32,000 bases of DNA from Desulfuromonadales bacterium (GCA_037129255.1 JBAXVG010000033.1:158-32157), one strand, 5' to 3'; numbered from the stretch's first letter, positions 1,220 to 29,162 are shown. The notes: generated from the sequence alone by a model not told the origin. Numbers and translations are program-made.

Positions 1220-1786
1220 TTATCGGTAAGTAAATGGAAATTTAGTCTTGAGTTTAGCAAGACATTCTGCTGACAACACTTTATTTTCCAAGGCAGTCCT
1301 TCCTAACTCTTCCATCGAACGTATTGTCTCACCTTGCTGATCGAGGCACATTTCAACTGATTGTTGCCAATAATCTTTTTTTCTATTTTCGTCGTATTCA
1401 ATCCGTCCCATATTGAACAGCCATAGCTGCCATGGATGACGGTTTGTAAGACATGGATTATTTAGCGCCCATGCACGATACTCTGGTGATTGCGTGTTAG
1501 TATCAGCAAGATATCTGACCAAAAGCGAATGTTTAAATGGGTTTGCGTCATTAGCAAAATCGAAATCGCTCAAATGCGTTATTTCCAAGTATTTGAGGAG
1601 AGATTCCTCAGCGAGCTCAAGCCGGTTGGCATCAAGATATGCGTAGGTTAGATAGCAAAATTGCCTCAGGTAATCGTCACGATAATCTATGACATTTCCA
1701 TTTCCGAAGGCCTCTTGTGCTTTAAAAGAAAAGCCCACTGTATTATCAATATATTCAGGCCCGCAAAATGCGTAGTGCTGCATCAT
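1220..1786 (-). CDS. hypothetical alpha-helical protein, third gene of the Lon-like operon (start uncertain)
   Basis: The ORF is open to a TTG at 1885 and an ATG at 1882, which would overlap the upstream gene by about 60 nt. The first 33 residues of that extension look non-protein-like, so I place the start at the ATG-ATG at 1786 (MMQHYAFCGPEY...). No family recognised. The helical, TPR-like composition (YAYLDANRLELAEESLLKYLEI) and AT-rich sequence match its two neighbours. Confidence 0.5.
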   Translation of the reverse strand: MMQHYAFCGPEYIDNTVGFSFKAQEAFGNGNVIDYRDDYLRQFCYLTYAYLDANRLELAEESLLKYLEITHLSDFDFANDANPFKHSLLVRYLADTNTQSPEYRAWALNNPCLTNRHPWQLWLFNMGRIEYDENRKKDYWQQSVEMCLDQQGETIRSMEELGRTALENKVLSAECLAKLKTKFPFTYR

Positions 1787-1823
1787 TGTACCGAAATAAC
1801 AGCCTAAAGCATAATGTACGCAA

Positions 1824-7335: not shown

Positions 7336-7354
7336 AATGAGTAACACCTTGTTG

Positions 7355-7585
7355 TCAGTTGTCTTCCGGTTCGAACGGTTCCCGCTTCAAGGAACCGTCT
7401 TTTTGTCTCAGGAGGACGTCAACCCTCCGTTCAGCTTCGTTCAGCTTTCCGGAGCAGAAGGTTGAATATTTGACACCCTCTTCAAAGGCTTTCAAAGAGT
7501 CTTCGAGTGAGAGAGAACCACCCTCCAACCGTTTTACAATATCTTCCAGCTTCTTCAGGGATGTTTCGAATTTGTCGATTGCCAT
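7355..7585 (-). CDS. xseB: exodeoxyribonuclease VII small subunit
   Basis: 76 aa. FETSLKKLEDIVKRLEGGSLSLEDSLKAFEEGVKY is the XseB signature. First gene of xseB-ispA-dxs. Confidence 0.9.
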   Translation of the reverse strand: MAIDKFETSLKKLEDIVKRLEGGSLSLEDSLKAFEEGVKYSTFCSGKLNEAERRVDVLLRQKDGSLKREPFEPEDN

Positions 7586-16699: not shown

Positions 16700-18841
16700 T
16701 CAAGCGAAACGATAAAAAGCAAACGCCAAAAGTTCCATTTCTCTGATTTCGAACAGAATTTTGAAGGGCAGGTGCATAATCATCCGTTTCTCTGCATCCG
16801 GCACAGATGAGAGTATCGTATCAACCTGCGCCTTCATACGCTTGATCTCGTTTGCAAGCGCCCTGGTGCCCCTGAAGGAACTCTGCAGGTAATAGTCCGC
16901 CTTATCCCACACAGTCTTGTTTCCGGCATTGCCGATATTTATGGTGTGCTCAAGCAGGGCGATGTTGCCGATCTTCCAGATCCAGTCATCATAGTTCTCG
17001 TTAGTCGATTTCAGCCAGGTATCCTTCAACTCCTGATAATTCACGGCGCTCTGGGCCAGGATATGCTCTCGCTGTATCATAATTCCATCGTCCTCATCGA
17101 TGTCGTAATCGAAAATCACGCCCAACTCCTGGTCTGTGTAGTCATACACCATACGATCATACTCGTAGAGGACGTATTTGTAGTTTCCATATCCCAGATC
17201 CCTGACCAGGTAATCCTTCTTATACCAAAATGAAAAATTGCGGACATGCTCAATAATTTCATCCACCACATTGCTTCCCCAGACAAAGCTGCCGACCGGA
17301 CGCTTCCCGATAGTCCAGATTGCAAGTTCATTTTCCTCAATCAGATTGAAGATCGTTGCCGGTCTGGAAGCAAACTGTCTGAATTCGTCGATCCGCACCA
17401 GACACATCATGTAGCGGTCTTTCAGGAATCCGAACAGCTCCTTGTACGGCCTGATCAGTTCGATATCTCGTGCAATGCCGGATTCTTGAATCAGAGAGAC
17501 GAGCTTGACGTTTGCCCCTTTGATCCGGTCGATATCTTCAAACAGGTTTATGGAGGCCAATTCTTCCTTTTTGGCAAAGGTCTGTCCCGGCTCCAACAGT
17601 GACTGTTCGATTAACGGAGTATTAGTGAAGATGTCAACCAGAAGAGCTTTACTAAATACCGATAGCCCCAGAACACTGAAGAGCTGTTTGAACGGATACC
17701 AGGTCTTGGAGGCGTACGGGTCTTTGTGGTTATGGGCCATTTCTCCCGGAACTGCTGTTTCGGCAACATACCTCATGAACACGATGATGTTCCGGAGCCT
17801 GTCAGTCAGGATGGGTATGATCAGTTTTATGTTATCTCTTTGCAGCACAAGTGTTTCGCGGAACACTTTGTTGATGGATTCGTAGATCCTGTCCTCGCCG
17901 GATTCATACCAGACATCTACCTTGCGGTCCTTGTCATCATCGCCGGTAATCAGATCGTTCAGGTACTTTCGGTAAAAGTCCTCTTTCAGCAGCATGAAAT
18001 TCAGTATCCGAATCACATCTGCTTCGGCACTCTCCGGTTTTGGATACACCTTAAGCGAACAGAGCAATTCAATTGTTTCAAACAGACCGCCAAAAAGGTT
18101 GTCGATCTCTCCTTCCAGGTCAATGTCCTTTTCGACCTTCTGAGCGTAGAACATCAGTGTGCTCTTGAGTTTTTCGGTGTTGGTCAGGCGCTTGCCACGA
18201 TCAGTCTGCGAAACGAACAGGGTTCCGGCCAGTTTTAGATCATCCTCGACCAGAATCTGAACGACTTGGATGTTACTCTGAACAAATCGCTTCAGATCAT
18301 CACGGCGTGGAAAATTCGCAAGGTGGCGTTGGAAATAGAGGTATGTCGCCTTTATGCGCCGATTGCTTTTGGTCTTTGCCTCAACCTCTTTGCCGTTGAC
18401 GAGATGCAGGAAATATTCGTAATCCACTTTGCCGGGGATCAGCTTGGGGATGGCAGCGTTGAAGAGGTGGGAGTTGATTTCGGCATCCTGGAAAGCAAGC
18501 AGGAAGAGGAAAAAGGTAGTGGTACGCTGCTGTCCATCGATAACAAAGTAGAAATCGTTGCAACCAGCGAGCGGCTTTAGCTGTTCATGGTTCAAAATGT
18601 CCTGATTGACATATTCGCCAAGCTGGTCATAGCCAACCTTGGCCAGATAGATGCTCCCCAGCAGATAGGGCAACTCTCCGGCCTCTGCGATGGCAAAGAC
18701 CATATCGTTCCAGAAGTCCTCGATATGTTTCTCTTCCCACGAATAAGGGCGCTGGTATTTCGGCATCAGGAAATAGCGGCATTCGCCGAACATTTCGGTG
18801 TAGTAGTTGGAGATTGAGACTTTGATTTTGCCGGGGGTCAT
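16700..18841 (-). CDS. GmrSD-like type IV restriction enzyme (N-terminal DUF262 ParB-like NTPase, C-terminal DUF1524 His-Me/HNH-like nuclease)
   Basis: DUF262 motifs are PKYQRPYSWEEKHIEDFWNDM and VIDGQQRTTTFFLFL. The C-terminal nuclease-like motifs are REHILAQS and IGNIALLEHTINIGNAGNK. 713 aa is a typical size for fused DUF262-DUF1524 proteins. Confidence 0.85.
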   Translation of the reverse strand: MTPGKIKVSISNYYTEMFGECRYFLMPKYQRPYSWEEKHIEDFWNDMVFAIAEAGELPYLLGSIYLAKVGYDQLGEYVNQDILNHEQLKPLAGCNDFYFVIDGQQRTTTFFLFLLAFQDAEINSHLFNAAIPKLIPGKVDYEYFLHLVNGKEVEAKTKSNRRIKATYLYFQRHLANFPRRDDLKRFVQSNIQVVQILVEDDLKLAGTLFVSQTDRGKRLTNTEKLKSTLMFYAQKVEKDIDLEGEIDNLFGGLFETIELLCSLKVYPKPESAEADVIRILNFMLLKEDFYRKYLNDLITGDDDKDRKVDVWYESGEDRIYESINKVFRETLVLQRDNIKLIIPILTDRLRNIIVFMRYVAETAVPGEMAHNHKDPYASKTWYPFKQLFSVLGLSVFSKALLVDIFTNTPLIEQSLLEPGQTFAKKEELASINLFEDIDRIKGANVKLVSLIQESGIARDIELIRPYKELFGFLKDRYMMCLVRIDEFRQFASRPATIFNLIEENELAIWTIGKRPVGSFVWGSNVVDEIIEHVRNFSFWYKKDYLVRDLGYGNYKYVLYEYDRMVYDYTDQELGVIFDYDIDEDDGIMIQREHILAQSAVNYQELKDTWLKSTNENYDDWIWKIGNIALLEHTINIGNAGNKTVWDKADYYLQSSFRGTRALANEIKRMKAQVDTILSSVPDAEKRMIMHLPFKILFEIREMELLAFAFYRFA

Positions 18842-18895
18842 AGCTGCTTCTCCAAAATCAGATACGGATTGATGCCATTCTTCCGAAACCGGTTA

Positions 18896-19306
18896 TTACA
18901 AGGATTCCATACCAAGTTTCTTTATAGCAGATTTGAACTTTTCGTCAAAAGTGATGATTATAGAATTTTTGATTGCCTTTCCTGTCGCTGCAATCAGCGT
19001 ATCACCAAAATCCGCAACCTTTGAAGGCCAAAATGAGAGCAGCACAGTAAAGTCGGTTTGCTGGCATAACTCTACCCCAGGCATGGTTATAAAATCGCGG
19101 AGCATTGCGTTAATCGTCTCTTTTGGAGTGCCATATACTTTGTCCATGACAAAAACAAATTCAGTCAATACGAACTGATGGCATACAAGAGTACATTTCA
19201 AACGGTATGCTGACTCAAAAAAAGAAGCGACAATTGCTTGCTGGGCCGGGTCTCTATCCGTGACAAAAGAGATAAGAGCGTTGGTATCAATGATGTACTT
19301 TTTCAC
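18896..19306 (-). CDS. vapC: PIN-domain ribonuclease toxin VapC
   Basis: 136 aa with acidic PIN residues in context (YIIDTNALI, VLTEFVFV, DFGDTLIAAT, IITFDEKF). The GTG start overlaps the upstream antitoxin stop (GTGA). Confidence 0.85.
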   Translation of the reverse strand: MKKYIIDTNALISFVTDRDPAQQAIVASFFESAYRLKCTLVCHQFVLTEFVFVMDKVYGTPKETINAMLRDFITMPGVELCQQTDFTVLLSFWPSKVADFGDTLIAATGKAIKNSIIITFDEKFKSAIKKLGMESL

Positions 19307-19536
19307 CGATACTTCTCCAGGCAGTTCTCTCTAGCCTGCTGAATATCGTCGGCAATATTTCCGGCCCCGGTTTTCACGCTTCCTTGATAACGGAGAAAAT
19401 CGTTATGAACCGGATGAACAACCGCCTTCCCATTTTCAACGATCCACTCCAGCGAGTCATTGATGGAAATACCAATTTGTTCTCTCACTGCTTTAGGAAT
19501 TGTGGTTTGATATTTTACCGTTACTGTTGAGTTCAT
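19303..19536 (-). CDS. vapB: AbrB/MazE/SpoVT-family antitoxin VapB
   Basis: MNSTVTVKYQTTIPKAVREQIGI... is the swapped-hairpin SpoVT/AbrB motif. The ATG at 19536 follows GGAGG (the ORF-track M1 is a TTG). Translationally coupled to vapC. Confidence 0.8.
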   Translation of the reverse strand: MNSTVTVKYQTTIPKAVREQIGISINDSLEWIVENGKAVVHPVHNDFLRYQGSVKTGAGNIADDIQQARENCLEKYR

Positions 19537-19555
19537 GGCATCCTCCAAAGGTAAA

Positions 19556-19645: not shown

Positions 19646-20323
19646 TTACACAATATTATCCGGGTGCAATTTGTCTTCAATCCATCGTTGCGGGTTATAT
19701 GCAACATATTCGGCAATCCGGTTGTAATCGGCATCATTGCGGATAACGTGTTCATGATAATTGCGTTGCCATACTGGTACACCAGGGGAATTGCGGGTTT
19801 CGTTGATACGTTTGGTTACGGCGGATTTGAAACCCGACAACAACGCGCCGATCGATTTTTGTTGTGGTCCAGACATCTGGACGACCGGCATTTGGGCGAC
19901 CGGCCGGTCGCCCCTACGTTGTTTTTCGTCTATACGGGTATCATCCGTTATCAAAACAATTCCATGAAAATGATTCGGCATTACCACAAATTCCCCCAAT
20001 TCAATCTCAGCACGAATTTCCGCCGAATGAATCCATTCAGCAGCAACAATCCTACCCAAATCATTCACAATCATTTCCCGTAGGGGCGAACGGCGTTCGC
20101 CCATGTTTTCGCGTTCGCCCAAGTTTTCGCGTACGTTTTCGCCCAGATTTTCGCCAGACATTTCAACGATCTCCCCAAACAGACATTCCCTGTTGTAAGC
20201 GCATATCGTCACAAAATACGCCCCTACCTGGGAATAATCATATCCCTTTAGACGGATTGAACGGCGATGATGTATATCCGGATTGAATTTCATATCGATA
20301 CCCAACATGCAATTTCCTGCCAT
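19646..20323 (-). CDS. REP-associated tyrosine transposase (RAYT; IS200/IS605 Y1 HUH family)
   Basis: MKFNPDIHHRRSIRLKGYDYSQVGAYFVTICAYNRECLFG, the HUH motif PNHFHGIVLI, and the catalytic Tyr region VWQRNYHEHVIRNDADYNRIAEYVAYNPQRW. Two in-frame ATGs are present (20323 and 20293); family N-termini favour 20293. The gene is surrounded by, and contains, GTAG-palindrome REPs. Confidence 0.8.
   Translation of the reverse strand: MAGNCMLGIDMKFNPDIHHRRSIRLKGYDYSQVGAYFVTICAYNRECLFGEIVEMSGENLGENVRENLGERENMGERRSPLREMIVNDLGRIVAAEWIHSAEIRAEIELGEFVVMPNHFHGIVLITDDTRIDEKQRRGDRPVAQMPVVQMSGPQQKSIGALLSGFKSAVTKRINETRNSPGVPVWQRNYHEHVIRNDADYNRIAEYVAYNPQRWIEDKLHPDNIV
19894..19917. repeat. REP copy inside the RAYT coding sequence
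   Basis: GGGCGACCGGCCGGTCGCCCCTAC is read in frame on the minus strand as ...RRGDRPVAQ... Confidence 0.75.
20080..20102. repeat. REP copy inside the RAYT coding sequence
   Basis: GTAGGGGCGAACGGCGTTCGCCC is read in frame on the minus strand as ...MGERRSPLR... It is flanked at 20103-20155 by short GTTTTCGC(N)CCC half-site repeats that encode GENLGENVRENLGEREN. Confidence 0.75.
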
Positions 20324-20352
20324 GTTCCGAATTCATTGATATATCGTCACAC

Positions 20353-20464
20353 GTAGGGGCGACCGGTGGTCGCCCTGTTGTTGATGTTCGTCCTGATGCA
20401 TCCGTTCGCCAATGTTTTCACCCTGCGATGATATCCAAACAGGGCGAACGCCGTTCGCCCCTAC
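20353..20464. repeat. REPIN (inverted REP doublet) copy 1
   Basis: GTAGGGGCGACCGGTGGTCGCCCTG, about 65 nt, then CAGGGCGAACGCCGTTCGCCCCTAC. Two REPs sit in inverted orientation with terminal GTAG/CTAC. Confidence 0.8.
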
Positions 20465-20596
20465 GATGATGTTTCGGTGCTTGCCGTATTCTTCAACGAC
20501 AACCCCGCCGTGCGGATGGTGCCGGTCTGAATTTCATATCGATACCCAACATGCAATTTCCTGCCATGTTCCGAATCCATTGATATATCGTCACAC

Positions 20597-20709
20597 GTAG
20601 GGGCGACCGGTGGTCGCCCTGGTGTTGATGTTCGTCCTGATGCATCCGTTCGCCAATGTTTTCACCCTGCGATGATATTCAAAACAGGGCGAACGCCGTT
20701 CGCCCCTAC
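20597..20709. repeat. REPIN copy 2
   Basis: Same architecture as copy 1, one tandem-repeat period downstream. Confidence 0.8.
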
Positions 20710-20841
20710 GATGATGTTTCGGTGCTTGCCTTATTCTTCAACGACAACCCCGCCGTGCGGATGGTGCCGGTATGAATTTCATATCGATACCCAACATGCA
20801 ATTTCCTGCCATGTTCCGAATTCATTGATATATCGTCACAC

Positions 20842-20951
20842 GTAGGGGCGACCGGTGGTCGCCCTGGTGTTGCTGTTCGCCCTGATGCATCCGTTCGCCA
20901 ATGTTTTCACCCTGCGATGACAATCATACAGGGCGAATCATTCGCCCCTAC
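20842..20951. repeat. REPIN copy 3 (distal REP degenerate)
   Basis: GTAGGGGCGACCGGTGGTCGCCCTG ... CAGGGCGAATCATTCGCCCCTAC. The second palindrome is shortened. Confidence 0.75.
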
Positions 20952-21119
20952 AAACCATCCCTAATACCACGGTAATCGTCTAATAAAACGTTTCAAGGCT
21001 TTTCTGGTTCTGTACCTCGCCCTGAATTGAAATTAGTTAGCATTCTCAAAGAAATTGTCATCATATATGCGCTCCTTTTGTATTAAATAGATGAATGCTG
21101 TATCAGATACATATTGAAA

Positions 21120-24071
21120 TCAATCTTTTTGCGTATCAGGTACCAGCATGGCTATTATTTCAGGTACTATATCTGTTTTTATTATGCTTAACTTGTCTCT
21201 GAAAAACTTTTGCATAACTTCCTGAGCCTTTTCGTTAATTACTTTCTTGTCTCTTCCTCCTGTCAATCTTGCATTCCATTCGGCATACTTGTACCAAGGC
21301 CAAGTATTAGATTGTCTCCCATAGCACAAGTTTTTATTATCATTCATCTGCTTACGTAGTATTTCCTTTTCTTCAGTCGTCAATAATCCTATATCAATTA
21401 TTCCATAATAGAGATCATCAAAATTTGCTTGCCCTGCTTCAATAGCAATGGTCAGTGTTCCTGGATCATGGCCAGTTCTTTTCCATGTTTCTTTGAATAT
21501 CCGAATGCTAGCCCAGCGTTCCAGTGATTTTGCATTTGATGTGATTTTCCAGCCATCTTTCGCCGGAAAAATGTCCTCTATTGACTTTGTCAGACCATCA
21601 ATCAAGTTATTCATCCCGCCAATAAAATAAACTAAGTCATTGTGATCATTACATAGCGATGAGATGAGTGGTTCAATTCTATTGATGCTTTTGGCCATCT
21701 CATTCAGGTAGTTCTCAAAAGATGACATTGCATCTCCAGCTATAAGAAGCGTGTCAAAATTGCTGCCGCCAGTGATGCTGTGTTTTGGCAAGGTTGCACT
21801 CCAAAACCCGTAGCGATTTTTGGCGTCATGCCCTTGTCCAAAAGCAAACTCACAGGCACCGCACACCATACCAAGTTTATGTTCGAACTGTGGATCAATC
21901 TGCTCATTCTGTCGGAGCGAAATAATTAGACCGTCGAAACAAGGCTTGGTTGGTATGATTTGAAGCATGAGCGGTGGGAGGTCATCATCCTTGGCTCCAT
22001 TATTCCTCCAAGAAGATCGCCAGATTTTAATTGCCGCATTGGGTTCTAGTGACGTAGCTTCGTTAATAACGTTCCAATCATTTCCCAAAAAGCCGGATAG
22101 CAGAACTCCAGAGCTTTCGGTGAATTTTACAACTTCTTCTAGGTGCTTTTTTAGAACAATAAATTCTGGAATCAGTTTATCAACTTGCTGAACTACATAA
22201 TTTTCAAAGCGATCAAACCATAGAGCGACTGCCCCACCGTCAAAATCTACTGAAACTTGTTCTTCAGTTTGAATGTAGGATTTTCTCGCCGTAATGAATG
22301 CCTGGATGGTTTTAGTTTCAAAGTCAGGTGGATCAAGATTTTTGAATTCAATCGCCATTCTTCTTGGGTTGCATTTGAACGCTGCTACAGCATCAAAATT
22401 AGCCACTTTAAGCTTTAGATATATTTCTTTATATGTCCACGGATGATCTAAATTAAACGTGCTGAATATCGCTTTAAACCCGTAGGGCTCTGTTTTTTTA
22501 GCGATCTCAGCTGTAATAAGTCTGAGCCTGTTGTATATATACATACCATTAGAGCATTGCTGGGGTTCTGGTGGAAACAAATCAATAGATCTATTCTGTA
22601 ATTCAGGTATGTTATGACAAGCATGGTCCATATCGTTTTCAAGTGCCTCTATAAGCTTCCTAAAAAAATCGACACAATATTTTACAAATTCACTTCTTTT
22701 TCCTTGCCAATTCTGACTTCTACTAGAAAGTCCACTGTTCCTCCAAGGGGTTTCCAGAGCAGCACACCATACAACTTTATCTTCTTTGGGCCCAGATTGA
22801 CCTTTCACAAGACTGTCTGCCTTTTGGAAAATATTTTCTCCTAAATCGCCTAACTCATACCAAGGTTCATATTTCAAAATTTCAATGTGAAGTTCTTCCA
22901 GTAATCTGACGCGACTTTCCAAAGTAAATGAGAGGATACCTCTAGCTCTGCTATCTTCTTTATCAATAGTTAAGGGGTATTTAGGCACCCATGCTTCTTT
23001 GTAGATGTTTATTTTGCCAAAAAAATGTTTATAGTAAGGGTGATTGCTAGTGCCTTCGTATGAATTAAAGGCATCAAGCCGTTCACCCTCTGGTGCGCCA
23101 ACTTTCCATTCAGGAAACTCTGCTCGCAATTTTATAAAAAGTTCAGTAATGGTTTCAGAAAGAAATTGTCCATAAAGAGCCCATTCAATTAGGTCAGGCA
23201 TGGTCTTCTCAAAGAATGCAATAACATTATCCCCAAAAATTCCAAAAAACTTATCCTCGGGCCAATCACAACGACCGATAGCCAAATGAAACGCCGGTTC
23301 AAAAATTGTAATTTTTTCTCGACGATTTGAAGTTTGAAGTGATCTAGGAAAATTTCTTTTTTGTTCCTTCGAAAATTCGTTGAATGCCCTCTTTAAAGGA
23401 TCATCCATAACAGCACAATCTACAAAAACCGACATTGTCTGGTTGCTAATATTCAATTGACATTTTAAGTCAACACCTGTTGCCCCAAGACGGAAAGGAA
23501 AGAAAACTTCAATTATCCCTCCCCCACAATCTTTGGCTGAAAACATGGAGTTAATTCTGCTCAAATCATTGGAATATTTCTTGTTTAGCACATTGGCTAA
23601 AATCCTTGCTAATGCAAGGTATCCAGACCCAGATCTTTCTCCCTCAGAAGTTTCTTTTCCCAAATTTTGTAAGACCGCCTCGATTGATGCGTTGTAGCGA
23701 GACAATGGATCATTTTCAAGAGCATCGATCCACTGCTTGTTTGAAAGATGGTACTTGAATGCTCCTAATAATTCTGTTTCTTCAATCCGGATAGGTAGGA
23801 TGGTCATGCGCCGTCCGTTTGCTAAATCAACTTCTTTTTCAACTTCAGCAGAACTCATTGAATCTTTTGATACAAGCAATACCATTATTGATGCTTTCTC
23901 GATTCCATCACTAATAGCTGTTGCCCACCTGCCACCTGGTGGGATATCCCGTGGAGCCATCCAACACGAGACACCAGCCCCTTCAACTACGTTGCAAAAC
24001 AGTTGGGCAAGTTCTTTATTTTTTGTACAGTAACTTATGAAAACTTCCTTCTTAACATTTTCATCTGCCAT
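21120..24071 (-). CDS. TIR-domain protein with ~840-aa C-terminal region built from five tandem ~165-aa modules
   Basis: N-terminal TIR domain: KKEVFISYCTKNKELAQ...GVSCWMAPRDIPPGGRW...ASIMVLLVSKDSMSSAEVEKEVDLA...ILPIRIE. The Glu in the xxEV position (probably E80) sits where the catalytic Glu of NADase TIRs lies. The rest is unassigned. AGGGGGA RBS 4-5 nt before the ATG. AT-rich (two rows counted, 35% and 43% G+C). Confidence 0.85.
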   Translation of the reverse strand: MADENVKKEVFISYCTKNKELAQLFCNVVEGAGVSCWMAPRDIPPGGRWATAISDGIEKASIMVLLVSKDSMSSAEVEKEVDLANGRRMTILPIRIEETELLGAFKYHLSNKQWIDALENDPLSRYNASIEAVLQNLGKETSEGERSGSGYLALARILANVLNKKYSNDLSRINSMFSAKDCGGGIIEVFFPFRLGATGVDLKCQLNISNQTMSVFVDCAVMDDPLKRAFNEFSKEQKRNFPRSLQTSNRREKITIFEPAFHLAIGRCDWPEDKFFGIFGDNVIAFFEKTMPDLIEWALYGQFLSETITELFIKLRAEFPEWKVGAPEGERLDAFNSYEGTSNHPYYKHFFGKINIYKEAWVPKYPLTIDKEDSRARGILSFTLESRVRLLEELHIEILKYEPWYELGDLGENIFQKADSLVKGQSGPKEDKVVWCAALETPWRNSGLSSRSQNWQGKRSEFVKYCVDFFRKLIEALENDMDHACHNIPELQNRSIDLFPPEPQQCSNGMYIYNRLRLITAEIAKKTEPYGFKAIFSTFNLDHPWTYKEIYLKLKVANFDAVAAFKCNPRRMAIEFKNLDPPDFETKTIQAFITARKSYIQTEEQVSVDFDGGAVALWFDRFENYVVQQVDKLIPEFIVLKKHLEEVVKFTESSGVLLSGFLGNDWNVINEATSLEPNAAIKIWRSSWRNNGAKDDDLPPLMLQIIPTKPCFDGLIISLRQNEQIDPQFEHKLGMVCGACEFAFGQGHDAKNRYGFWSATLPKHSITGGSNFDTLLIAGDAMSSFENYLNEMAKSINRIEPLISSLCNDHNDLVYFIGGMNNLIDGLTKSIEDIFPAKDGWKITSNAKSLERWASIRIFKETWKRTGHDPGTLTIAIEAGQANFDDLYYGIIDIGLLTTEEKEILRKQMNDNKNLCYGRQSNTWPWYKYAEWNARLTGGRDKKVINEKAQEVMQKFFRDKLSIIKTDIVPEIIAMLVPDTQKD

Positions 24072-24118
24072 AATTCCCCCTGTATGAAATTATTTTCTCG
24101 CAAAACATCTGCGCACCG

Positions 24119-25798
24119 TCAAACCTTATCAATAAACTCCCTGTGCATCTTCCACGCTTCACTATCAACAAGCTTCTTCAGATTCTTCACCATATCACGA
24201 TCTTTGTTTTTTTCATCCTCTGGCAGTTCACTATACGGTGTAGAACTCAACAAATTATGAAGCTTTCTGGGTTTGTCGGTAACCGCTGCATATCGCCAGC
24301 CGCTCATAAAGCGCTCTGCCTTCCAGCGCCGGTTTTCAAGTTCCGACAATGTTTCAATTGCATCATCCTGATTACAAAACTTTGCAAGTGTATCACCAGG
24401 GTTATCCTCGCATCTCAGCGCCCGAAGTTTAACTGAAACATGGTCAGCCGGCCAACGGTTTGCATCGCGCATGGTTTCATCGAGTTCTTCCCAAGGCGCT
24501 CCGCCACTATATGCCTGGTGAATGGCTTTGGCCAGTTCATCAGTCACCTCATCATGCAACACCTGATACCCGGTGCCAATATCCAGAATATTGAAGCCAT
24601 ACGTTTCAATATTTGCAGGTGAAGTGTTTCCACCTGACACCAGTTTTGAAAGCTGCGACTTCATATTTACTACTATCGGTGTGTTATCGTTACCCAGAAG
24701 TGTTCTGACACGTTGTGCCAGCGAAAGGCCAAGCGGATCATCATCCACAGCTACATAGACAATCACTGGTGCATGGTCTGCTGTTCCCATGATATCGGCA
24801 AGTGACGATATACATTCCGGGTCGCGATCCACAAAACGCACCTGAACATCAGACACAATCAAACCGGGTGGGTTCTTTCCATCGCCATACAGGGCAAAGA
24901 ACTTCTCTGAAACTGGCTTTATATTCCGGTCAAGTACTGTTATCTCCAGATTCTTCCAATCAACGTAATGCCCAACCCGCGCGGCTTGCTTTACTACTGC
25001 CTCCCCCGTCCTGCCAAATCCGATAACCGCAATCCGCAACGTATCGCCGGTGAAACCCTGCTCTATCGCATATTTGTCCGGTGGATATTTCTCAAACATC
25101 ACACGAGAGGCGGTTTCGTAAACATTGAAGATACTTGCGTCAAACGCCGTGCCCTGCTTTTTATACAGATCATGACCGGCAAAAATGTCCCGCAGGCTTG
25201 GACTTGCAATATGAGTGAAACAACGCAAGTTAGATTTATTGTCGTCCGCCTTGCTGACAAGTTCTTGTGCCTGATGTGTAATCTCTATGTTATCGTGGTC
25301 GCTTCCGGTAACTGCAAACAGATATCTGGCACAGGTGATATTTGCTTCTTCCAGAATAACAGGATCGCCGGAATCACCGATAATAACCGTCGCGCCTCTC
25401 TCACGGCAGCCGCTGATATCCGGGTGATCTTTTTTTGATTCTATGACCACAACACGTTTTTCCCGCTTGATATATTCTTCCACCAGTCTCATCCCTTTTT
25501 CACCAAGTCCGCAGATAACAACATGGCCGCGTGACTGGTGCAGGCGGATCAAAGCGTACTTCTCGCAAATTTCCTTCCAGAAGGCCTGGATGGAACCGAG
25601 AGCAGTTCCACCGGCACCTAAAAACTTGGCTATCTTGAAGAGCGTTTTCTGTTGCTCTGATGTTCCAAAGAAAACGGCTGCAATACCGCCGATCAAGGCC
25701 AGTACTGCGATCACCAGCAGAGCAATTACAAACCACCAGGAATAGCGACGGCTCCAACGGCCAATTGTGGAATACGTGGAAATACTCTTTTCTGTCAT
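24119..25798 (-). CDS. membrane protein: N-terminal TM segments, two Rossmann (TrkA-N-like NAD-binding) domains, C-terminal RyR domain
   Basis: TM helix WWFVIALLVIAVLALIGGIAAVFF. GxGxxG with an acidic beta2 end (HVVICGLGEKGMRLV...RVVVIE). Second Rossmann IAVIGFGRTGEAVV...EITVLD. C-terminal LAKAIHQAY...PWEELDETMRDANRWPADHVSVKL and ENRRWKAERFMSGWRY...KLHNLLSSTPYSELPEDEKNKDRDMV match the bacterial RyR-domain pattern. The ATG lies 4 nt after the upstream stop. Confidence 0.7.
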   Translation of the reverse strand: MTEKSISTYSTIGRWSRRYSWWFVIALLVIAVLALIGGIAAVFFGTSEQQKTLFKIAKFLGAGGTALGSIQAFWKEICEKYALIRLHQSRGHVVICGLGEKGMRLVEEYIKREKRVVVIESKKDHPDISGCRERGATVIIGDSGDPVILEEANITCARYLFAVTGSDHDNIEITHQAQELVSKADDNKSNLRCFTHIASPSLRDIFAGHDLYKKQGTAFDASIFNVYETASRVMFEKYPPDKYAIEQGFTGDTLRIAVIGFGRTGEAVVKQAARVGHYVDWKNLEITVLDRNIKPVSEKFFALYGDGKNPPGLIVSDVQVRFVDRDPECISSLADIMGTADHAPVIVYVAVDDDPLGLSLAQRVRTLLGNDNTPIVVNMKSQLSKLVSGGNTSPANIETYGFNILDIGTGYQVLHDEVTDELAKAIHQAYSGGAPWEELDETMRDANRWPADHVSVKLRALRCEDNPGDTLAKFCNQDDAIETLSELENRRWKAERFMSGWRYAAVTDKPRKLHNLLSSTPYSELPEDEKNKDRDMVKNLKKLVDSEAWKMHREFIDKV

Positions 25799-25802
25799 GG
25801 CA

Positions 25803-27581
25803 TCACCCCTGAGGTACTTCTATGGGACGTTCACGGTGCATGAGTACCCAATCGCCGTTCTCGGCCAAGGCCTCCTTGCCAACCGCCAGAATAATTTCCC
25901 GCTGGCACGTTTTGTCATAAGTACCGCTATCCAGCAGTTGCAGGCTTTTTGTGAAAACGCCGTACATCCGGGCATACTGCTTGGCCTGCTCGGCATACAG
26001 CATCCGTTCGGCATAAAACTTCAGAGCTCCGGAAATAACAAAGATAAGCGGGGTAGCAACCTGCATCCAGGGGTCAAGCGTATCCCCTCCCAGTTTCATA
26101 CCATGAATGATCAGCATGGCAGGGGTTACTGCGAAGAAGCCCAGGCGGAAAAGGAAGGTTGATATTGTATCCAATTTTTCAGCTTCCTTTTTATTCCAGC
26201 GCGCTTTTTTTCCGAAATAGTCCCTTTGGTTTTCCAGCCAATACTCGCGTATAGCTGAAAGGTTACAAGGTGCCGCCGTCTCTGCACAACCTCTGTAGGC
26301 CAACAGATTCCAAGTCTTGACCGCGTAACGTATCCAGTTAAGCTCTGACTGCTGCTTGCTCAAGTAGAACGAGGCCGGATTTTCGCTGACCCCGGCCAGT
26401 TGCCAGAACAGACTGACCCGCATCCCCTCAGCCAGAGCACGGTAGTCGAGAAACTTCTCCGGGGCACCCTGGCGATGGGTGATACTATAGATACCGTAAG
26501 CAAGCCCCAGAAAGAGCAGGTATCCGGAAATGGCAAACATAGCTGTGGTCACGTTGGTATAGGTTTCACCGAAGAAAACGATAAACGGAACCAGCGAGGC
26601 CAGCAGCAGCAAGACACTGTAGGTTTCCTTTTGAAACTGTTGAGAAAGAACGTCAGCATGAGTAAAGTAGTGCAGCAGTTGTCTGGCTGATGGTGAAAGG
26701 TCTGCCTGGGTGAAGGGGGGCTGATCTATGGGAATCACATATTTTGCCGCTTCCTTGCGCCTGTCGTCAAAATCAGGAACCAGCCGGTATATATCATTCG
26801 AATCCCCATTGAAAAGTTCGATACAGGCCAGGGTGCGCAGGTGCTCGTCTTCCCGGATTCCCTTCCCGTCATCAGTAAGCGGGTACAGCAGTTGCACCCC
26901 TGCCGGCGCATCCCGTTCTGCCCGGTGCTTCTCGATAAAGTCAACATCCTGCGATACGTTGGAAGCATTTGTTCGCCTGGTTGGAACGTAATAAACCACT
27001 CCGGTTTGCACGGGGTTGAACAGCGATATACCGGGCTGTCGGGAATCGTCAGCGCCATACAATTGCATGCGTACAACGTGCGATGTGCCGCCGGACGGAC
27101 CATTTGTCGCACCGTCCCACAGGGCAATCAGCACCTGACTCTGCTCAACGATGAAGCGGCCAACAGCGAGGTATTGCAGATCCCGTGAAATTTCTTCGGC
27201 AGCTGCCGCTTCCGAATTCCCATTTTCAAGCGGCAATTCGAGCGAAAACACTGCCTGCGCCAACAAGTACCGAAACTGACTGACCGATTCCGGGGAAAAA
27301 TCCTGTTCATACAGTTCCTGCGACATCGGTAACGGCACAACAAGTTCAATACCGGCATCCAGCGCCGCTTCAGCAGCCAAACGGTCTGCTCCATCAGCCA
27401 GGGCAGAGACGAGCATCAACGGGGTACGAGGATACTCCTCATGCAGATGATCAATAATAGCCCGTATCTTTTGCTTCAAGTCAGGTTTATCTTCGTCAAG
27501 GATGTCACGGTGACCAGTGACCCCAATCAGTAGCGGTAATGTGGTCTGGTTTAGTGTTTGAGCGTTACTGGTATCTGCCAT
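25803..27581 (-). CDS. SLOG-superfamily (YpsA/LOG/DprA-like) nucleotide-sensor domain fused to a four-TM region with SLATT-like C-terminal 2TM module
   Basis: SLOG-type motifs are LIGVTGHRD, LVSALADGADRLAAEAALDAG and WDGATNGPSGGTSHVV (Gly-rich phosphate loop). Hydrophobic helices are VLLLLASLVPFIVFFG, AMFAISGYLLFLGLAYGIYSI, ISTFLFRLGFFAVTPAMLII and VATPLIFVISGALKFY. The last pair is preceded by YWLENQRDYFGKKARWNKKEAEKL, as in DUF4231/SLATT modules. The ATG at 27581 follows AAGGAG (the ORF-track M1 is a GTG at 27590). Confidence 0.7.
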   Translation of the reverse strand: MADTSNAQTLNQTTLPLLIGVTGHRDILDEDKPDLKQKIRAIIDHLHEEYPRTPLMLVSALADGADRLAAEAALDAGIELVVPLPMSQELYEQDFSPESVSQFRYLLAQAVFSLELPLENGNSEAAAAEEISRDLQYLAVGRFIVEQSQVLIALWDGATNGPSGGTSHVVRMQLYGADDSRQPGISLFNPVQTGVVYYVPTRRTNASNVSQDVDFIEKHRAERDAPAGVQLLYPLTDDGKGIREDEHLRTLACIELFNGDSNDIYRLVPDFDDRRKEAAKYVIPIDQPPFTQADLSPSARQLLHYFTHADVLSQQFQKETYSVLLLLASLVPFIVFFGETYTNVTTAMFAISGYLLFLGLAYGIYSITHRQGAPEKFLDYRALAEGMRVSLFWQLAGVSENPASFYLSKQQSELNWIRYAVKTWNLLAYRGCAETAAPCNLSAIREYWLENQRDYFGKKARWNKKEAEKLDTISTFLFRLGFFAVTPAMLIIHGMKLGGDTLDPWMQVATPLIFVISGALKFYAERMLYAEQAKQYARMYGVFTKSLQLLDSGTYDKTCQREIILAVGKEALAENGDWVLMHRERPIEVPQG

Positions 27582-27594
27582 AATGATCACTCCT

Positions 27595-29057
27595 TCAGGC
27601 GTTATTGAGGCTCAGGTGCTGAACAATCCTCACCATCGCCAGAGAATCCTGTCCACAGTATTTCAGCATATTCTGCCGCAGAGCCTCACGACGTTCCGGT
27701 GCTGTCGTTTCATGAATCGCTTCCAGAAATGCAGTCTGAGCTTCCATCCCGTTGCTTACTTCTTCAAGGTTGTCGTAGGAGAGGTCAGGGGCGATGGTCG
27801 GCAGTACCGCCTTAATTGACCATGAACCGTGCATATCCGGGTGGTAATAATTCTGGCGGAGCAGCGGCAGCAGGTCGATAATTCGCTCCTGAAGGGTGGC
27901 AAGCGAGGCCTGCAGGTCCGGGTACAGTTCGATCAGAATACCGATAACCATTCGTTCAAAATGTCCATACGTGATAATTGGGCCGACTGTTCCTAAGTCG
28001 GCAATCATTTGATCAGCAAGTGAGCGCATGGGTGGACCACCGCTGATATCTAGGAATTCGAGATGTGTGACAGTATCATCTGGCTGTTCAACATGGCAGG
28101 AATATTGGAACGGAAGCTGTTGGTAAGGGCGAGTGCCGGCCCAGATCGGGATGGCAAACATAATTGTCTCGAAATCGAGGTAATAGCGCGGGAAACCAAT
28201 CTGCTGCAGTTCAGATTGCAGGGCGGGATCTACCTGCGGCTTACCAGTTGAGACCGCATCCCAAATCCTTCGATGTTTCTCGTTAGTCAGCCGCTCCGTG
28301 GGACATTTCGGAGGTCGGTAAAACCTTCATCCAACAATTGAAGTTCAATACGGGTTGCTCCGGGGAGGGTTTCCGTCGGGTATTCAAAGCCGGATTGAGC
28401 GGGTGAACAGTGTAAGCAGTAGGGGCACTCAAAGGGCGAATAGCACTGATCTCCCGGCATTATTTCAGGTTCACTACCCGTAAGCATTTCCCGGAAATCG
28501 CTTACCCATTTCGGAATCTCAACCCTCAGAGAATTTACCTGCTCAGTTACATCCTCTGACTGAAAAAGTCCGCGGTAGTCGTTACCTCCGGGATACACAA
28601 AGCTGTTGTCAATGTGGGTCAGATGGACGGTAGACAGCGGGATGTTATTGCCGATAACCCATGCCTGGATAGAAATGTCCGGAACATGGTAGTCCTTTAC
28701 GGAGGTGGATGATTTGGCTTCGTAAAGTTTATAGGAAGCATTATCCTTTTCGAGAAGATCGGCACGAATCAGAACCCCCTGATGTGAAAATGTGGCCTCA
28801 AATATTCGGAGCTCCCCTGCTTGTACCAACCGTTCCGTTTCCTGAAGCGCCTTGCCGAGACCTTGCTCACCCTTTACAAATTTTCCATCGGGATACAAGG
28901 TTCGGAAAACATCATGCAGCGCAAGCCCCGCCTGAAGACGCTCATTTGTCTCGTCAGAGACCTCGGCACATTCAGGGCGGTTTACTGTCAACCAGAGTCT
29001 TTTTCTGCATTGCAGACCTTCGATTATTTTTGACTTGGAAAGGTTGCAGGGGTGCAT
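27595..29057 (-). pseudogene. DUF2779-family protein (N-terminal PD-(D/E)xK/Cas4-like region, C-terminal RNase H-like region) split by a single frameshift
   Basis: The upstream half (28287-29057/29105) has LSKSKIIEGLQCRKRLW and EAKSSTSVKDYHVPDISIQAWV. The downstream frame is open from 28326 and reads ...ERLTNEKHRRIWDAVSTGKPQVDPALQSELQQIGFPRYYLDFETIMFAIPIWAGTRPYQQLPFQYSCH, the DUF2779 core, before the ORF-track ATG at 28161. The two frames overlap at 28290-28326, so one indel there restores a protein of about 500 aa. Its stop overlaps the RBS of the SLOG gene. Confidence 0.7.
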
Positions 29058-29162
29058 AAGCTTAAACCTCGACACTGAAAGGCTCGGCATGACCGTTATC
29101 GGCACCGCCGTACTGGTGGGATGAGGACTTCCTCCACAAATAAATGGAGGCGGAAGATAATT

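Follow-up and report, generated by a model that had tools for sequence, protein, structure and literature searches.

A conserved, probably Thoeris-like TIR operon of a Desulfuromonadales bacterium with two putative signal-binding membrane proteins

The SLOG fold of the Thoeris effector ThsA binds 3'cADPR. In type VII Thoeris the signal is canonical cADPR and oligomeric breaching of the membrane is predicted, the proposed cADPR-binding pockets of the SLATT effector ThsH lying between SLATT protomers (10.64898/2025.12.03.692087). In the same work, Yirmiya et al. nominated 'SLOG and 4TM' proteins encoded beside a TIR gene (TIR cluster 2691454909) as candidate Thoeris effectors; neither of two such operons, taken from Streptomyces and Ca. 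Nitrospira, protected E. coli when tested. The TIRs of their type X fall in cluster 2598792572, which is type II-like, and no domain make-up is given for the accompanying channel. According to two preprints of 2026, 2'/3'cADPR is bound or cleaved by phage proteins with an RyR domain, and in such proteins the fold binds 2'cADPR, 3'cADPR and cADPR with nM to µM affinity (PMC13232231; 10.64898/2026.06.04.730250). Direct evidence of binding to TIR-made cyclic ADPR isomers exists for two folds, SLOG and RyR.

Here we analysed a window of 32,000 nucleotides, the whole stretch of DNA examined, from a Desulfuromonadales bacterium. A sequence-only reading had proposed that four of its genes, encoding TIR, SLOG-transmembrane, TrkA_N/RyR and DUF2779 proteins, form a novel Thoeris-like system. 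The four minus-strand genes lie within positions 21120-29057, and the ORF listing together with the sequence bore out the claimed spacing of 13, 4 and 47 nt; the 13-nt gap separates the DUF2779 stop from the ATG of the SLOG gene, the stop codon TGA abutting its AGGAG. The operon is real and conserved. Its core, positions 21120-27581, is in our view a Thoeris-like TIR signalling operon with two signal-binding membrane components, a reading to which we give a probability of about 60 per cent; the domains, motifs and neighbourhoods described below are what it is built on, and from them we infer every biochemical step and the defence role. The operon is probably an anti-phage system with an RyR-domain partner that has not been reported before.

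The TIR gene (21120-24071, minus strand) encodes 983 aa. Its TIR domain (residues 8-137; 23661-24050, minus strand) was recognised by the Pfam model TIR_2 with E = 2.4e-21 and carries the putative catalytic Glu80 in the motif SAEVEKEVDLA, a residue invariant in alignment A6. Foldseek searches with the AF2 model (pLDDT 81) returned TIR folds only, among them the AbTir, SARM1, SPARTA and B. cereus TIR structures, in full agreement with the original assignment. No TM helices were found in the protein, and the 840-aa region C-terminal to the TIR domain occurs in only 15 proteins, every one of them TIR-fused. The TIR protein is a candidate infection sensor and signal producer.

The SLOG-4TM protein (592 aa; ORF 25803-27590, minus strand, with the likely start ATG at 27581 after AGGAG) has a YpsA-type SLOG domain at its N terminus, then two SLATT 2TM modules in tandem, and belongs to a family of 4,293 clusters (50% identity) at E <= 1e-30. 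The SLOG domain (residues ~16-240; 26862-27536, minus strand) has invariant GxTGHRD, EGAD and GGT motifs (alignments A1 and A4). The Pfam YAcAr call, at 28.2 bits, falls exactly on its cut-off, and this borderline assignment is confirmed by the AF2 model (pLDDT 92, pTM 0.91), from which Foldseek recovered the SLOG fold: the best PDB matches are YpsA 2NX2 (E = 2.3e-4, probability 1.00, TM 0.60 on target), DprA, ShosA and LOG-like proteins. The first SLATT-like module spans residues ~297-395 (26397-26693, minus strand), with TM1 at 320-338 and TM2 at 346-364 by hydropathy; the second spans residues ~438-551 (25929-26270, minus strand), with TM3 at 473-491 and TM4 at ~505-525 by hydropathy and AF2 helices. 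In the window protein no SLATT model of Pfam or NCBIfam passes its cut-off, a weak NCBIfam SLATT_3 match lying at 304-394. Its homologues match SLATT_3/DUF4231 at ~290-375 and SLATT_1 at ~440-538 (the latter in P0031 and P0086). The last TM pair is therefore SLATT-like, as had been suggested, but so is the first, both pairs being of the SLATT clan. We consider the protein a candidate signal-gated membrane effector.

Between these two genes lies the TrkA_N/RyR gene (24119-25798, minus strand; 559 aa), whose assignment was confirmed by Pfam matches to TrkA_N (E = 8.4e-22) and RyR (E = 1.5e-8, 35.2 bits, the cut-off being 27.4) and, for RyR, by matches to the RyR1 repeats (E = 1e-11 to 9e-14) and to 3NRT of B. 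thetaiotaomicron. The first Rossmann (TrkA_N/RCK) domain (residues 93-183; 25250-25522, minus strand) has an intact GLGEKG at 97-102, and its PDB matches are the RCK domains of YbaL, Kch and TrkA. TrkA_N/RCK domains are classic binders of NAD(H) and ATP. A second Rossmann-like domain (residues ~255-400; 24599-25036, minus strand) carries GFGRTG at 260-265 and gives weak Pfam matches to F420_oxidored and Sacchrp_dh_NADP at 255-298; a motif check found both GxGxxG motifs intact. The RyR/R12 region (residues ~420-554; 24137-24541, minus strand) comprises two repeats: the first is degenerate, with invariant H427, W436 and N447-R448, and the second, which is canonical, carries N489, W492, H514 and D533. 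The spacing of these four residues fits that of H75/W78/H100/D117 in RyDEP and H129/W132/H154/D171 in RyR Tad, so that the window protein keeps three of the four ligand residues, with Asn in place of the catalytic His. Across the family the tetrad is His in 25/28, Trp in 28/28, His in 23/28 and Asp in 24/28 members. The distant members P0159 and P0172 keep a TTIGYGD filter that is deleted in the window clade (alignment A5). Judged by these alignments, the protein is a membrane-anchored, pore-less descendant of the RCK-type K+ channel family. Asn for the catalytic His, the three remaining ligand residues and the absence of a K+ pore lead us to favour a binding role over that of a hydrolase or channel; the protein is a candidate for a second receptor, an effector or a buffer of the TIR signal.

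The DUF2779 gene (27595-29057, minus strand) does not belong to this core. It is split into two ORFs (27595-28161 and 28287-29105), its true start being the ATG at 29057, and combines a Cas4-like N-terminal part with an RNase H-like DUF2779 C-terminal part (Pfam, E = 4e-33 for the C-terminal ORF). Alignment of the intact 489-aa orthologue of L081 runs in frame -1 as far as 28296 and continues in frame -3 at 28302, placing the frameshift at ~28296-28302, and the 7,986-nt operon is, with this frameshift, 100% identical in two further assemblies from other sequencing runs. The frameshift noticed earlier is thus genuine and the gene a reproducible pseudogene, dead in this organism. Only L081/L082 and L091 have DUF2779 immediately upstream of SLOG-4TM; the gene lies a few kb away in L001 and is missing from the more distant triple loci. 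It is an accessory neighbour accompanying the module in close relatives, and its earlier inclusion in the system has to be given up. As this upstream gene is a pseudogene, the locus may be decaying. The other neighbours in the window are GmrSD, VapBC and a REP transposase, which lend some substance to the term 'defence island', although the setting is modest. Just downstream lie the remnant of a toxin-antitoxin (TA) module and a REP/RAYT repeat array.

The genes recur as neighbours in other genomes, as the sequence-only reading implied. Of the 80 genome loci of the SLOG-4TM survey, 30 have a TIR domain within 2 kb and 39 have one within 10 kb. Up to 1 kb from SLOG-4TM the TIR density is 14.7 per 100 kb; at a distance of 7.5-10 kb it is 0.8 per 100 kb, an 18-fold drop. 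TrkA_N/RyR adjoins SLOG-4TM, on either side, in 7 of the 80 genomes, while a TIR or an SLOG-4TM-type SLOG lies near TrkA_N/RyR in 20 of 29 well-flanked loci. Such an association greatly exceeds what chance would produce. The genes occur in every pairwise and triple combination, in differing gene orders and phyla. An unbroken operon is present in L081/L082 and L091; L085 and L001 have the same three genes, and in L081, L091, L085 and L001 these keep the same order, with 45-86% identity. In L007, L042, L048, L070 and L071, representing five phylum-level lineages, TrkA_N/RyR lies on the opposite side of the SLOG gene. TIR and TrkA_N/RyR occur together without SLOG-4TM in L086 and L092-L100, L090 has a K+-channel version of TrkA_N/RyR inside a TIR-containing gene cluster, and an annotated SLOG-4TM and TIR pair is found on a Caballeronia plasmid. 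A single SLOG-4TM gene may have several TIR neighbours: L070 and L048 each have four, L023 has three and L001 two. Possession of more than one thsB gene per effector is a trait of Thoeris loci. The TIR partners carry varied sensor-like parts (WD40-NACHT, RHS, SAP, or TM with a periplasmic domain), and short TIR-only partners of ~220 aa are common. Comparative genomics thus supports the view that the three genes form a functional module.

The recurrence of TIR-SLOG-4TM and TIR-TrkA_N/RyR neighbourhoods in many phyla supports the proposed logic of signal producer, sensor and membrane effector. The independent nomination of 'SLOG and 4TM' as a Thoeris effector (10.64898/2025.12.03.692087) also favours our reading. 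The cytoplasmic TIR protein would sense infection through its clade-specific 840-aa C-terminal region, and its active site, in which Glu80 is present, would turn NAD+ into a cyclic-ADPR-type signal. The SLOG-2xSLATT protein would detect this signal with its SLOG domain, and its four-helix part would then open or oligomerise; the membrane potential would collapse, with growth arrest or abortive infection as the outcome. The TrkA_N/RyR protein would detect the signal too, through its RyR/R12 domain, and would serve either as a second effector or as co-receptor for, or regulator of, the SLOG-SLATT pore. NAD(H)/ADPR status may be sensed at its two intact Rossmann sites. The parallel drawn earlier between TIR, SLOG and RyR and eukaryotic NAD-metabolite signalling has been strengthened by the finding that RyR/R12 domains bind or cleave TIR-made cADPR isomers (PMC13232231; 10.64898/2026.06.04.730250). 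Several observations speak against our reading: the two 'SLOG and 4TM' operons tried by Yirmiya et al. did not protect E. coli; in 41 of the 80 SLOG-4TM loci no TIR was detected within 10 kb, the nearest relative, P0004, standing alone; distant TrkA_N/RyR homologues sit in ordinary housekeeping contexts; the window RyR domain is devoid of the His that contacts the terminal ribose in RyDEP; and the SLOG is YpsA/DprA-like and not of the STALD type of ThsA. Some TrkA_N/RyR genes are paired with a stand-alone SLOG protein and no TIR, so that SLOG could be an enzyme rather than a receptor.

The TrkA_N/RyR protein might instead be a host brake on a TIR-to-SLOG-SLATT defence that otherwise stays as proposed, sequestering the signal (hydrolysing it in relatives with a His/Asp dyad) to set the activation threshold or end signalling, a mirror of phage RyDEP and RyR Tad. 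Every RyR-domain protein characterised to date removes signal, as a sponge or a glycosidase (PMC13232231; 10.64898/2026.06.04.730250); the dyad is kept in 25/28 family members, Asn at the His position in the window clade is compatible with a non-catalytic binder, and the protein has no pore. We nevertheless think this unlikely, as a brake alone would make no system in the TIR and TrkA_N/RyR pairs lacking another candidate effector (L086, L092-L100), relatives with an intact K+ filter resemble effectors, and a sponge needs neither a membrane anchor nor two Rossmann domains. It seems rather improbable that the TIR protein is the effector and depletes NAD+ as an NADase, in the manner of TIR-STAND/Avs, SPARTA and the TIR effectors of CBASS, with the membrane proteins answering the fall in NAD+ or rise in ADPR through their Rossmann, SLOG and RyR domains, or unrelated to signalling. 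The fusion of some partner TIRs to NACHT-WD40, a self-contained sensor-effector architecture, would suit such a role, as would the nucleotide-binding habit of TrkA_N/RCK domains and the Foldseek proximity of the TIR to the SPARTA and SARM1 NADases. However, the direct evidence for binding of TIR-made cyclic ADPR isomers by SLOG and RyR folds, the multi-TIR arrays by one SLOG-4TM gene, which fit many sensors feeding one effector, and the common short TIR-only partners point the other way.

We give equally little credence to a non-immune role, in which the module would signal at the membrane in the normal physiology of the cell to keep ions or NAD in balance, SLOG and RyR handling an endogenous nucleotide and TIR being one of several optional inputs. 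About half of the SLOG-4TM loci are indeed TIR-less, five of them adjoining FBPase in Ignavibacteria/Kapaibacteria, and the K+-channel descent of TrkA_N/RyR, its distant members among housekeeping genes and its TIR-less pairing with SLOG would all be in keeping with such a function. Yet TA modules, transposases, GmrSD and STAND NTPases surround the genes in the window and in its relatives, the shuffled gene order and patchy phyletic pattern are typical of mobile defence genes, and the TIR partners show the variable sensor-like architecture of immune TIRs. Finally, the pseudogene status of DUF2779 and the downstream TA remnant and REP/RAYT array could indicate chance neighbours or a decaying remnant without current function; this is hardly credible given that the three core ORFs (TIR, TrkA_N/RyR and SLOG-4TM) are unbroken and 100% identical in three assemblies, are conserved in order in the four related loci, and recur in association in both gene orders across phyla.

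Compared with known systems, the four domains and the operon of the original proposal hold and its signalling logic is supported, whereas the complete novelty of the architecture and DUF2779 as a core part do not hold. The architecture had been thought undescribed, but SLOG-4TM with TIR is already listed (10.64898/2025.12.03.692087); what stands is the TrkA_N/RyR partner of TIR systems, for which our literature search found no report, TrkA, RyR and DUF2779 receiving no mention in the text and accessible supplements of Yirmiya et al. Matched by domain description, their 'SLOG and 4TM' system shares with the window the TIR neighbour, the N-terminal SLOG, the four TM helices and a predicted signal-activated membrane effector, but their operons have two genes and the window core three; a TIR related to their Nitrospira TIR directly follows an SLOG-4TM family member in L023. 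Type I Thoeris (ThsB TIR and ThsA SIR2-SLOG) likewise pairs a TIR producer, sometimes several, with an SLOG-bearing effector. The window differs in having no SIR2, in its YpsA/YAcAr/DprA-like rather than STALD-type SLOG, and in its predicted output, membrane disruption instead of NAD+ depletion. In type VII Thoeris a SLATT-type membrane effector, ThsH, also adjoins the TIR, whereas the window has two tandem SLATT modules after a separate SLOG domain.

Type X Thoeris, likened here by the description 'ion channel', combines a TIR with a channel-type membrane protein, and relatives such as that of L090 are bona fide K+ channels; the plasmid relatives of the type X TIR all adjoin Macro proteins. 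With RCK/KTN K+ channels and TrkA (Kch, MthK, YbaL, TrkA) the window protein shares the TrkA_N Rossmann domain with GxGxxG, and distant family members also share the 2TM pore with TTIGYGD; the window clade, in contrast, has no pore loop or filter and no TrkA_C, and has a C-terminal RyR. RyDEP and RyR Tad share Pfam PF02026 with the window RyR, W492, H514 and D533 corresponding to W78/H100/D117 and W132/H154/D171, respectively. These are small, soluble, phage-encoded proteins that destroy or soak up the host signal, whereas the window protein, with Asn in place of the catalytic His, is host-encoded, membrane-anchored, fused to two Rossmann domains and placed inside a TIR operon.

The window derives from a Desulfuromonadales metagenome-assembled genome, and its operon consists of four minus-strand genes separated by 13, 4 and 47 nt, gaps that agree exactly with the sequence-only reading. 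The leading DUF2779 gene (Pfam DUF2779, 4e-33) is broken into ORFs at 28287-29105 and 27595-28161, its true start being the ATG at 29057. It is followed by a gene for a SLOG domain joined to four transmembrane (TM) helices (SLOG-4TM, 592 aa; 25803-27581), by a gene for a membrane protein with two Rossmann domains and an RyR domain (TrkA_N/RyR, 559 aa; 24119-25798) and by a TIR gene (983 aa; 21120-24071). The SLOG-4TM protein is identical to that of NCBI locus tag WCP20_14795; the AGGAG preceding the ATG of its gene sits immediately 3' of the DUF2779 stop. A consensus scan of the operon block gave no promoter- or terminator-like sites above the level of shuffled sequence.

The DUF2779 protein, initially proposed as a nuclease component of the system, has to be removed from it. 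An intact 489-aa orthologue from another locus, L081, can be aligned in frame -1 as far as 28296, the match resuming in frame -3 at 28302, and the assemblies of SRR12676967 and SRR7053307 contain the complete 7,986-nt operon with its frameshift at 100% identity. Since the lesion is the same in the assemblies of two other runs, it represents a real pseudogene in the population and not a single-assembly error. The gene is also missing from L085 and other loci carrying the remaining three genes; it is a clade-specific neighbour. In L081 a DUF1963 gene (1169-2059) precedes the intact DUF2779 gene; the window has no DUF1963 gene and an aminotransferase gene lies upstream instead.

The identity of the TIR protein is firm: residues 8-137 match TIR_2 (E = 2.4e-21), Foldseek finds the TIR fold, and the putative catalytic Glu80 occupies the usual S-x-x-E position and is invariant in 15 homologues. 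The other 840 residues represent a tiny family, of which 15 proteins were found, all of them TIR-fused. The AlphaFold2 model (pLDDT 81) is built of repeated units of beta-sheet and long helix; nothing outside the TIR domain was recognised by Foldseek on the full-length model, and no internal repeats were detected by BLAST in the C-terminal region. The long TIR-APAZ alignments have an rmsd of >24 Å, are not meaningful and were rejected as evidence for an APAZ-like domain. The protein has no TM helices.

SLOG-4TM proteins form a family well conserved over its full length of ~590 aa, with >821 matches in a word-indexed search, 515 loci among one-genome-per-species contigs and, in a full HMM scan, 4,293 clusters (50% identity) passing E <= 1e-30 and 11,810 passing E <= 1e-3. 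The Pfam YAcAr SLOG score of the window protein, 28.2 bits, is exactly the cut-off, and a PDB sequence search with the SLOG-4TM profile gave no match; fold search alone succeeded. In the AlphaFold2 model (80 homologues; pLDDT 92, pTM 0.91), the N-terminal alpha/beta domain is matched by Foldseek, with a probability of 1.00, to YpsA (2NX2), DprA, ShosA and LOG/MoCo-carrier structures. These fold matches settle the borderline Pfam call, and the assignment made from sequence stands: as modelled, the domain is a SLOG of the YpsA/YAcAr/DprA kind. Its invariant motifs are GxTGHRD, EGAD and GGT.

The C-terminal half of the SLOG-4TM protein is a long helical bundle containing four hydrophobic helices, according to the model and to hydropathy. 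SLATT domains are SMODS and SLOG-associating 2TM effectors; SLOG and SLATT were reportedly defined by Burroughs et al. in 2015. The last TM pair had been called SLATT-like, and this second hairpin does resemble SLATT_1 in homologues, below the cut-off (24.0 and 18.7 bits vs 26.3). The description was incomplete in that the first hairpin is SLATT-like too: in full-length homologues it scores above the cut-offs for DUF4231 (28.5-30.9 bits vs 24.7) and SLATT_3 (27.0 vs 26.3). A Pfam search of the window protein itself gave no SLATT match, its SLATT_3 similarity at residues 304-394 being sub-threshold (18.6 bits vs a cut-off of 45). The hairpin matches in homologues therefore suggest a SLOG domain followed by two tandem SLATT-like modules.

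In the TrkA_N/RyR protein, residues 93-183 form an RCK/KTN-type Rossmann domain (TrkA_N, E = 8.4e-22) with an intact GLGEKG at 97-102, and GFGRTG at 260-265 belongs to a second, Rossmann-like domain. In the family alignment, the distant members P0159 and P0172 possess a TTIGYGD-bearing 2TM pore (Pfam Ion_trans/Ion_trans_2); the pore segment is degenerate in intermediate members and fully deleted in the window clade, leaving one strongly hydrophobic TM helix and one weaker. This graded loss indicates that the window protein descends from a family of RCK-gated K+ channels, has lost their pore and ends in an RyR domain. Proteins of its clade are more likely to act as a binder or regulator than as a hydrolase or channel. 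P0159 itself is encoded in locus L090 (5190-8794), where a TIR_2 protein is followed by a Tll0287-like/HAMP protein and then by this K+ channel (TTIGYGD + TrkA_N + RyR), a candidate TIR-signal-gated ion channel.

The RyR assignment was confirmed by a Pfam match above the gathering score (35.2 bits vs 27.4, E = 1.5e-8) and by direct matches of residues 482-554 to ryanodine-receptor repeats (RyR1 repeat, E = 9e-14) and to Bacteroides thetaiotaomicron RyR-domain structures. Two phage anti-Thoeris proteins with this domain have been characterized. The ligand residues of RyDEP are H75, W78, H100 and D117, with H75 and D117 forming a catalytic dyad (PMC13232231). RyR Tad binds 3'cADPR with a Kd of 43 nM, and 2'cADPR and cADPR too, through residues including H129/W132, H154 and K170/D171 (10.64898/2026.06.04.730250). 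RyDEP and RyR Tad share the spacing His-x2-Trp-x21-His-x16-Asp with the B. thetaiotaomicron/RyR1 sequence to which the window was aligned, and from this identical spacing we infer that the window equivalents are N489, W492, H514 and D533, with a two-residue insert ahead of the Asp. Across 28 family members, the tetrad is occupied by His in 25, Trp in all 28, His in 23 and Asp in 24; Asn at the first position was found only in the window and its two closest relatives.

Gene neighbourhoods support a functional unit and bear out the predicted co-occurrence of the operon genes: TIR–SLOG-4TM, TIR–TrkA_N/RyR and SLOG-4TM–TrkA_N/RyR adjacencies all recur across the surveyed loci. Longest-ORF gene calling proved unreliable in GC-rich loci, and a TIR profile was used instead against six-frame translations of 80 SLOG-4TM-anchored genome loci. 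A TIR domain lies within 2 kb in 30 of them and within 10 kb in 39, leaving 41 with no TIR within 10 kb; TIR density, 14.7 per 100 kb within the nearest 1 kb, has dropped 18-fold to 0.8 per 100 kb in the interval of 7.5-10 kb. Several loci contain more than one TIR gene (four ThsB-like TIRs in L070, four TIRs in L048, three in L023, two in L001), and TIRs near SLOG-4TM occur as fusions to NACHT-WD40, RHS or SAP modules. A search of plasmids with the SLOG-4TM protein found solely a distant relative from Caballeronia, likewise adjoining a TIR gene: in the RefSeq annotation, the SLOG-4TM protein, named 'DUF4231 protein', comes ahead of a TIR and then a WD40 protein. TrkA_N/RyR adjoins SLOG-4TM in seven of the 80 loci, lying downstream of it in two (the window, L001) and upstream in five (L007, L042, L048, L070, L071); the lineages involved are Nitrospirae, Armatimonadetes, delta- and gamma-proteobacteria and Acidobacteria.

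Among 80 metagenome loci anchored on TrkA_N/RyR, 31 contain a TIR and 14 a SLOG of the SLOG-4TM type; for the 29 flanked by 2 kb or more at each end, the figures are 12 for TIR, 11 for SLOG, 20 for either and three for both. The full order DUF2779–SLOG-4TM–TrkA_N/RyR–TIR (~980 aa), with DUF2779 intact, is found in L081/L082 and L091. L085 carries SLOG-4TM, TrkA_N/RyR and a 407-aa TIR protein with SAP, L061 has a large TIR directly after SLOG-4TM and no TrkA_N/RyR, and the homologous protein P0004 (59% identity) stands alone. The closest clade outside the window group (L086, L092-L100) has a two-gene arrangement, a 418-aa TIR followed by TrkA_N/RyR, and no SLOG-4TM. As TIR occurs with either membrane protein or with both, the core is modular. 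Besides its TIR domain, the 418-aa protein of this clade (L086, 5641-6897; L092-L100) has a single TM helix and a presumably periplasmic, beta-rich C-terminal part, which makes it an unusual membrane-spanning TIR; a 342-aa gene after TrkA_N/RyR in L086 was rejected as a partner because it is not conserved.

Stand-alone SLOGs of ~190-210 aa, which share their type with the N-terminal domain of SLOG-4TM, lie directly beside TrkA_N/RyR in five loci (L131, 6084-6725; L139, 6602-7180; L162, 5478-6068; L155, ~7140-7571; L150, 2680-3285). No TIR was detectable in four of these, and L155 has a TIR domain ~3 kb away. Such pairs suggest a link between SLOG and RyR that needs neither TIR nor the SLATT part. 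In 5 of 41 scanned upstream neighbours, the gene directly upstream of SLOG-4TM codes for fructose-1,6-bisphosphatase, and no TIR is nearby. As judged by upstream-gene sizes, the scan itself giving counts, these loci are probably from Ignavibacteria and Kapaibacteria, among L014, L016, L018, L026, L029 and L049; they suggest a TIR-independent context for part of the SLOG-4TM family. Genes for TIR-NACHT(NPHP3_N)-WD40 proteins of 1,430 and 1,834 aa (L007, 14430-18722; L048, 9441-14945) lie just downstream of paired TrkA_N/RyR and SLOG-4TM genes; a membrane effector possibly acting below an NLR-like sensor would be reminiscent of plant TNL logic.

By inspection, the surroundings of the operon include defence-type and mobile elements, namely GmrSD, VapBC and RAYT in the window and toxin-antitoxin modules, transposases and STAND NTPases in relatives. 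Directly downstream of the TIR gene is a 245-bp tandem repeat (20284-20951; 2.7 copies, 95% identical), each unit of which combines GC-rich REP-like palindromes (GGGGCGACCGGTGGTCGCCC, GGGGCGAACGGCGTTCGCCC) with a copy of the 5'-terminal part of the neighbouring gene for the REP-associated tyrosine transposase, RAYT (19646-20323). Between the repeat and the TIR gene, a 23-codon minus-strand ORF with an AAGGAG ribosome-binding site (20993-21064) looks, from sequence, like the scar of a deleted toxin-antitoxin module: one half resembles the start of a 78-aa gene and the other a region a short way into a PemK toxin gene, both of which come after the TIR gene in L081. On the minus strand at 16700-19548 lies a GmrSD-type DUF262/DUF1524 restriction enzyme gene, matching PADLOC HEC-06, Orf5 and SspE and followed by a MazE-like/PIN (VapBC-type) toxin-antitoxin pair. 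Four consecutive overlapping minus-strand ORFs of 255, 221, 485 and 319 aa occupy a low-GC stretch (41-44%) at 493-4227; none of the four has a Pfam or PADLOC match, and they could be an uncharacterised mobile or defence cassette.

We interpret the operon as a Thoeris-like system, a reading to which we assign a probability of about 0.6. The TIR protein would serve as infection sensor and signal producer, the SLOG-2xSLATT protein as a membrane effector gated by the TIR signal, and the TrkA_N/RyR protein as a second signal-binding membrane component. An adjoining effector with domains able to bind an ADPR-derived signal is predicted by the SLOG fold and by the RyR/R12 domain with its ligand residues. 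One main caveat counting against the Thoeris-like interpretation concerns these residues, namely the Asn at the first RyR ligand position. A less likely rival explanation makes TrkA_N/RyR a host-encoded brake; in its favour, some RyDEP homologues are nM sponges (PMC13232231), and against it, the TIR and TrkA_N/RyR pairs of the two-gene clade include no other candidate effector. Alternatively, and also less likely, the TIR protein itself could be the effector, acting as an NADase.

A physiological signalling role is a further, less likely rival. TrkA_N/RyR homologues at ~30% identity can sit among housekeeping genes, and two more of the main caveats, the half of SLOG-4TM loci with no nearby TIR and the SLOG-only and RyR pairs without TIR, belong here. 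Decay or chance is an unlikely rival: DUF2779 is a pseudogene, but all three genes downstream of its frameshift are intact, and the same adjacencies recur in distant lineages. Another main caveat to the Thoeris-like interpretation is that published tests of SLOG-4TM operons were negative. Their silence may be due to the absence of some host factor, of a suitable phage or of a partner protein.

Bacterial, plant and animal immunity are linked by TIR-derived ADP-ribose signals, and the window offers a natural three-gene module joining a TIR enzyme to both fold types known to bind such signals, each membrane-attached. If the Thoeris-like model holds, it adds a widespread effector family (the 4,293 clusters at E <= 1e-30) to Thoeris-type immunity, provides a first host-side role for bacterial RyR domains that would explain the origin of the phage anti-Thoeris RyR proteins, and supplies simple bacterial proteins, including true K+ channels with RyR in TIR clusters, for direct tests of gating by cADPR isomers. 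A bolder and distinctly more tentative proposal, which we consider somewhat doubtful, is that host RyR/R12 membrane proteins derived from RCK K+ channels are natural receptors of TIR-made cADPR, forming an axis from TIR through a cADPR-type signal to an RyR channel or regulator. Were this true, the axis would operate by itself where TIR is paired with TrkA_N/RyR or, as in L090, with a K+-channel version, and in combination with a SLOG-SLATT pore in the window; RyDEP and RyR Tad would be captured copies of a host receptor domain; and a tractable prokaryotic model would be available for the long-disputed direct action of cADPR on ryanodine receptors, an unresolved question in eukaryotic Ca2+ signalling.

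Part of this architecture has been anticipated. In December 2025, Yirmiya et al. listed 29 putative Thoeris types including 'SLOG and 4TM', two examples of which, one from Streptomyces GKU 895 and one from Ca. Nitrospira nitrosa, conferred no defence on E. coli; the authors validated type VII (TIR + SLATT, signal cADPR) and type X (TIR + 'ion channel') (bioRxiv 10.64898/2025.12.03.692087). By tblastn, the TIRs of the preprint's '4TM SLOG' type gave a single weak match among the surveyed loci, to L023 (E = 1.7e-4), and did not match the window TIR; the TIR partners being too diverse for such a link, the preprint's effectors are putative members of the window family. TIR relatives gave no information on the type X 'ion channel': all plasmid relatives of a type X-cluster TIR adjoin Macro proteins, i.e. 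type II Thoeris. On Klebsiella variicola plasmid pKLVA-1 (L176, 2672-8159), four TIR genes accompany one for a patatin-like 'CBASS cGAMP-activated phospholipase' and one for a LOG/STALD-like protein of 189 aa; this locus was rejected as a relative in the type III/SLOG-patatin-like comparison, as the SLOG-4TM profile does not match the 189-aa protein, which belongs to a different SLOG family.

TrkA, RyR and DUF2779 are absent from the text and the searched supplements of the preprint (10.64898/2025.12.03.692087), and neither the RyDEP (PMC13232231) nor the RyR Tad (10.64898/2026.06.04.730250) paper mentions host-encoded RyR proteins or TIR operons. A literature search for 'Thoeris' together with 'RyR' returned nothing else relevant beyond these two 2026 papers, and we found no report of recurrent TrkA_N/RyR linkage with TIR genes and with SLOG of the SLOG-4TM type. 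Thus, the sequence-only view of the architecture as undescribed survives for the TrkA_N/RyR linkage and not for the TIR + SLOG-4TM core, which was already predicted and is therefore not categorically new. Type I Thoeris ThsA joins a SIR2 NADase to a STALD-type SLOG, whereas the window protein has a SLOG matching YAcAr/YpsA/DprA and no SIR2 domain, none having been found by Pfam search of the window genes. The TrkA_N/RyR protein shares the GxGxxG TrkA_N/KTN Rossmann domain with RCK-gated K+ channels, whereas their pore helix and TxGYG filter are gone from it. Its recurrent linkage, together with the 2026 biochemistry of RyR-cADPR binding in phage proteins, turns the once loose analogy of TIR, SLOG and RyR into a specific, testable proposal.
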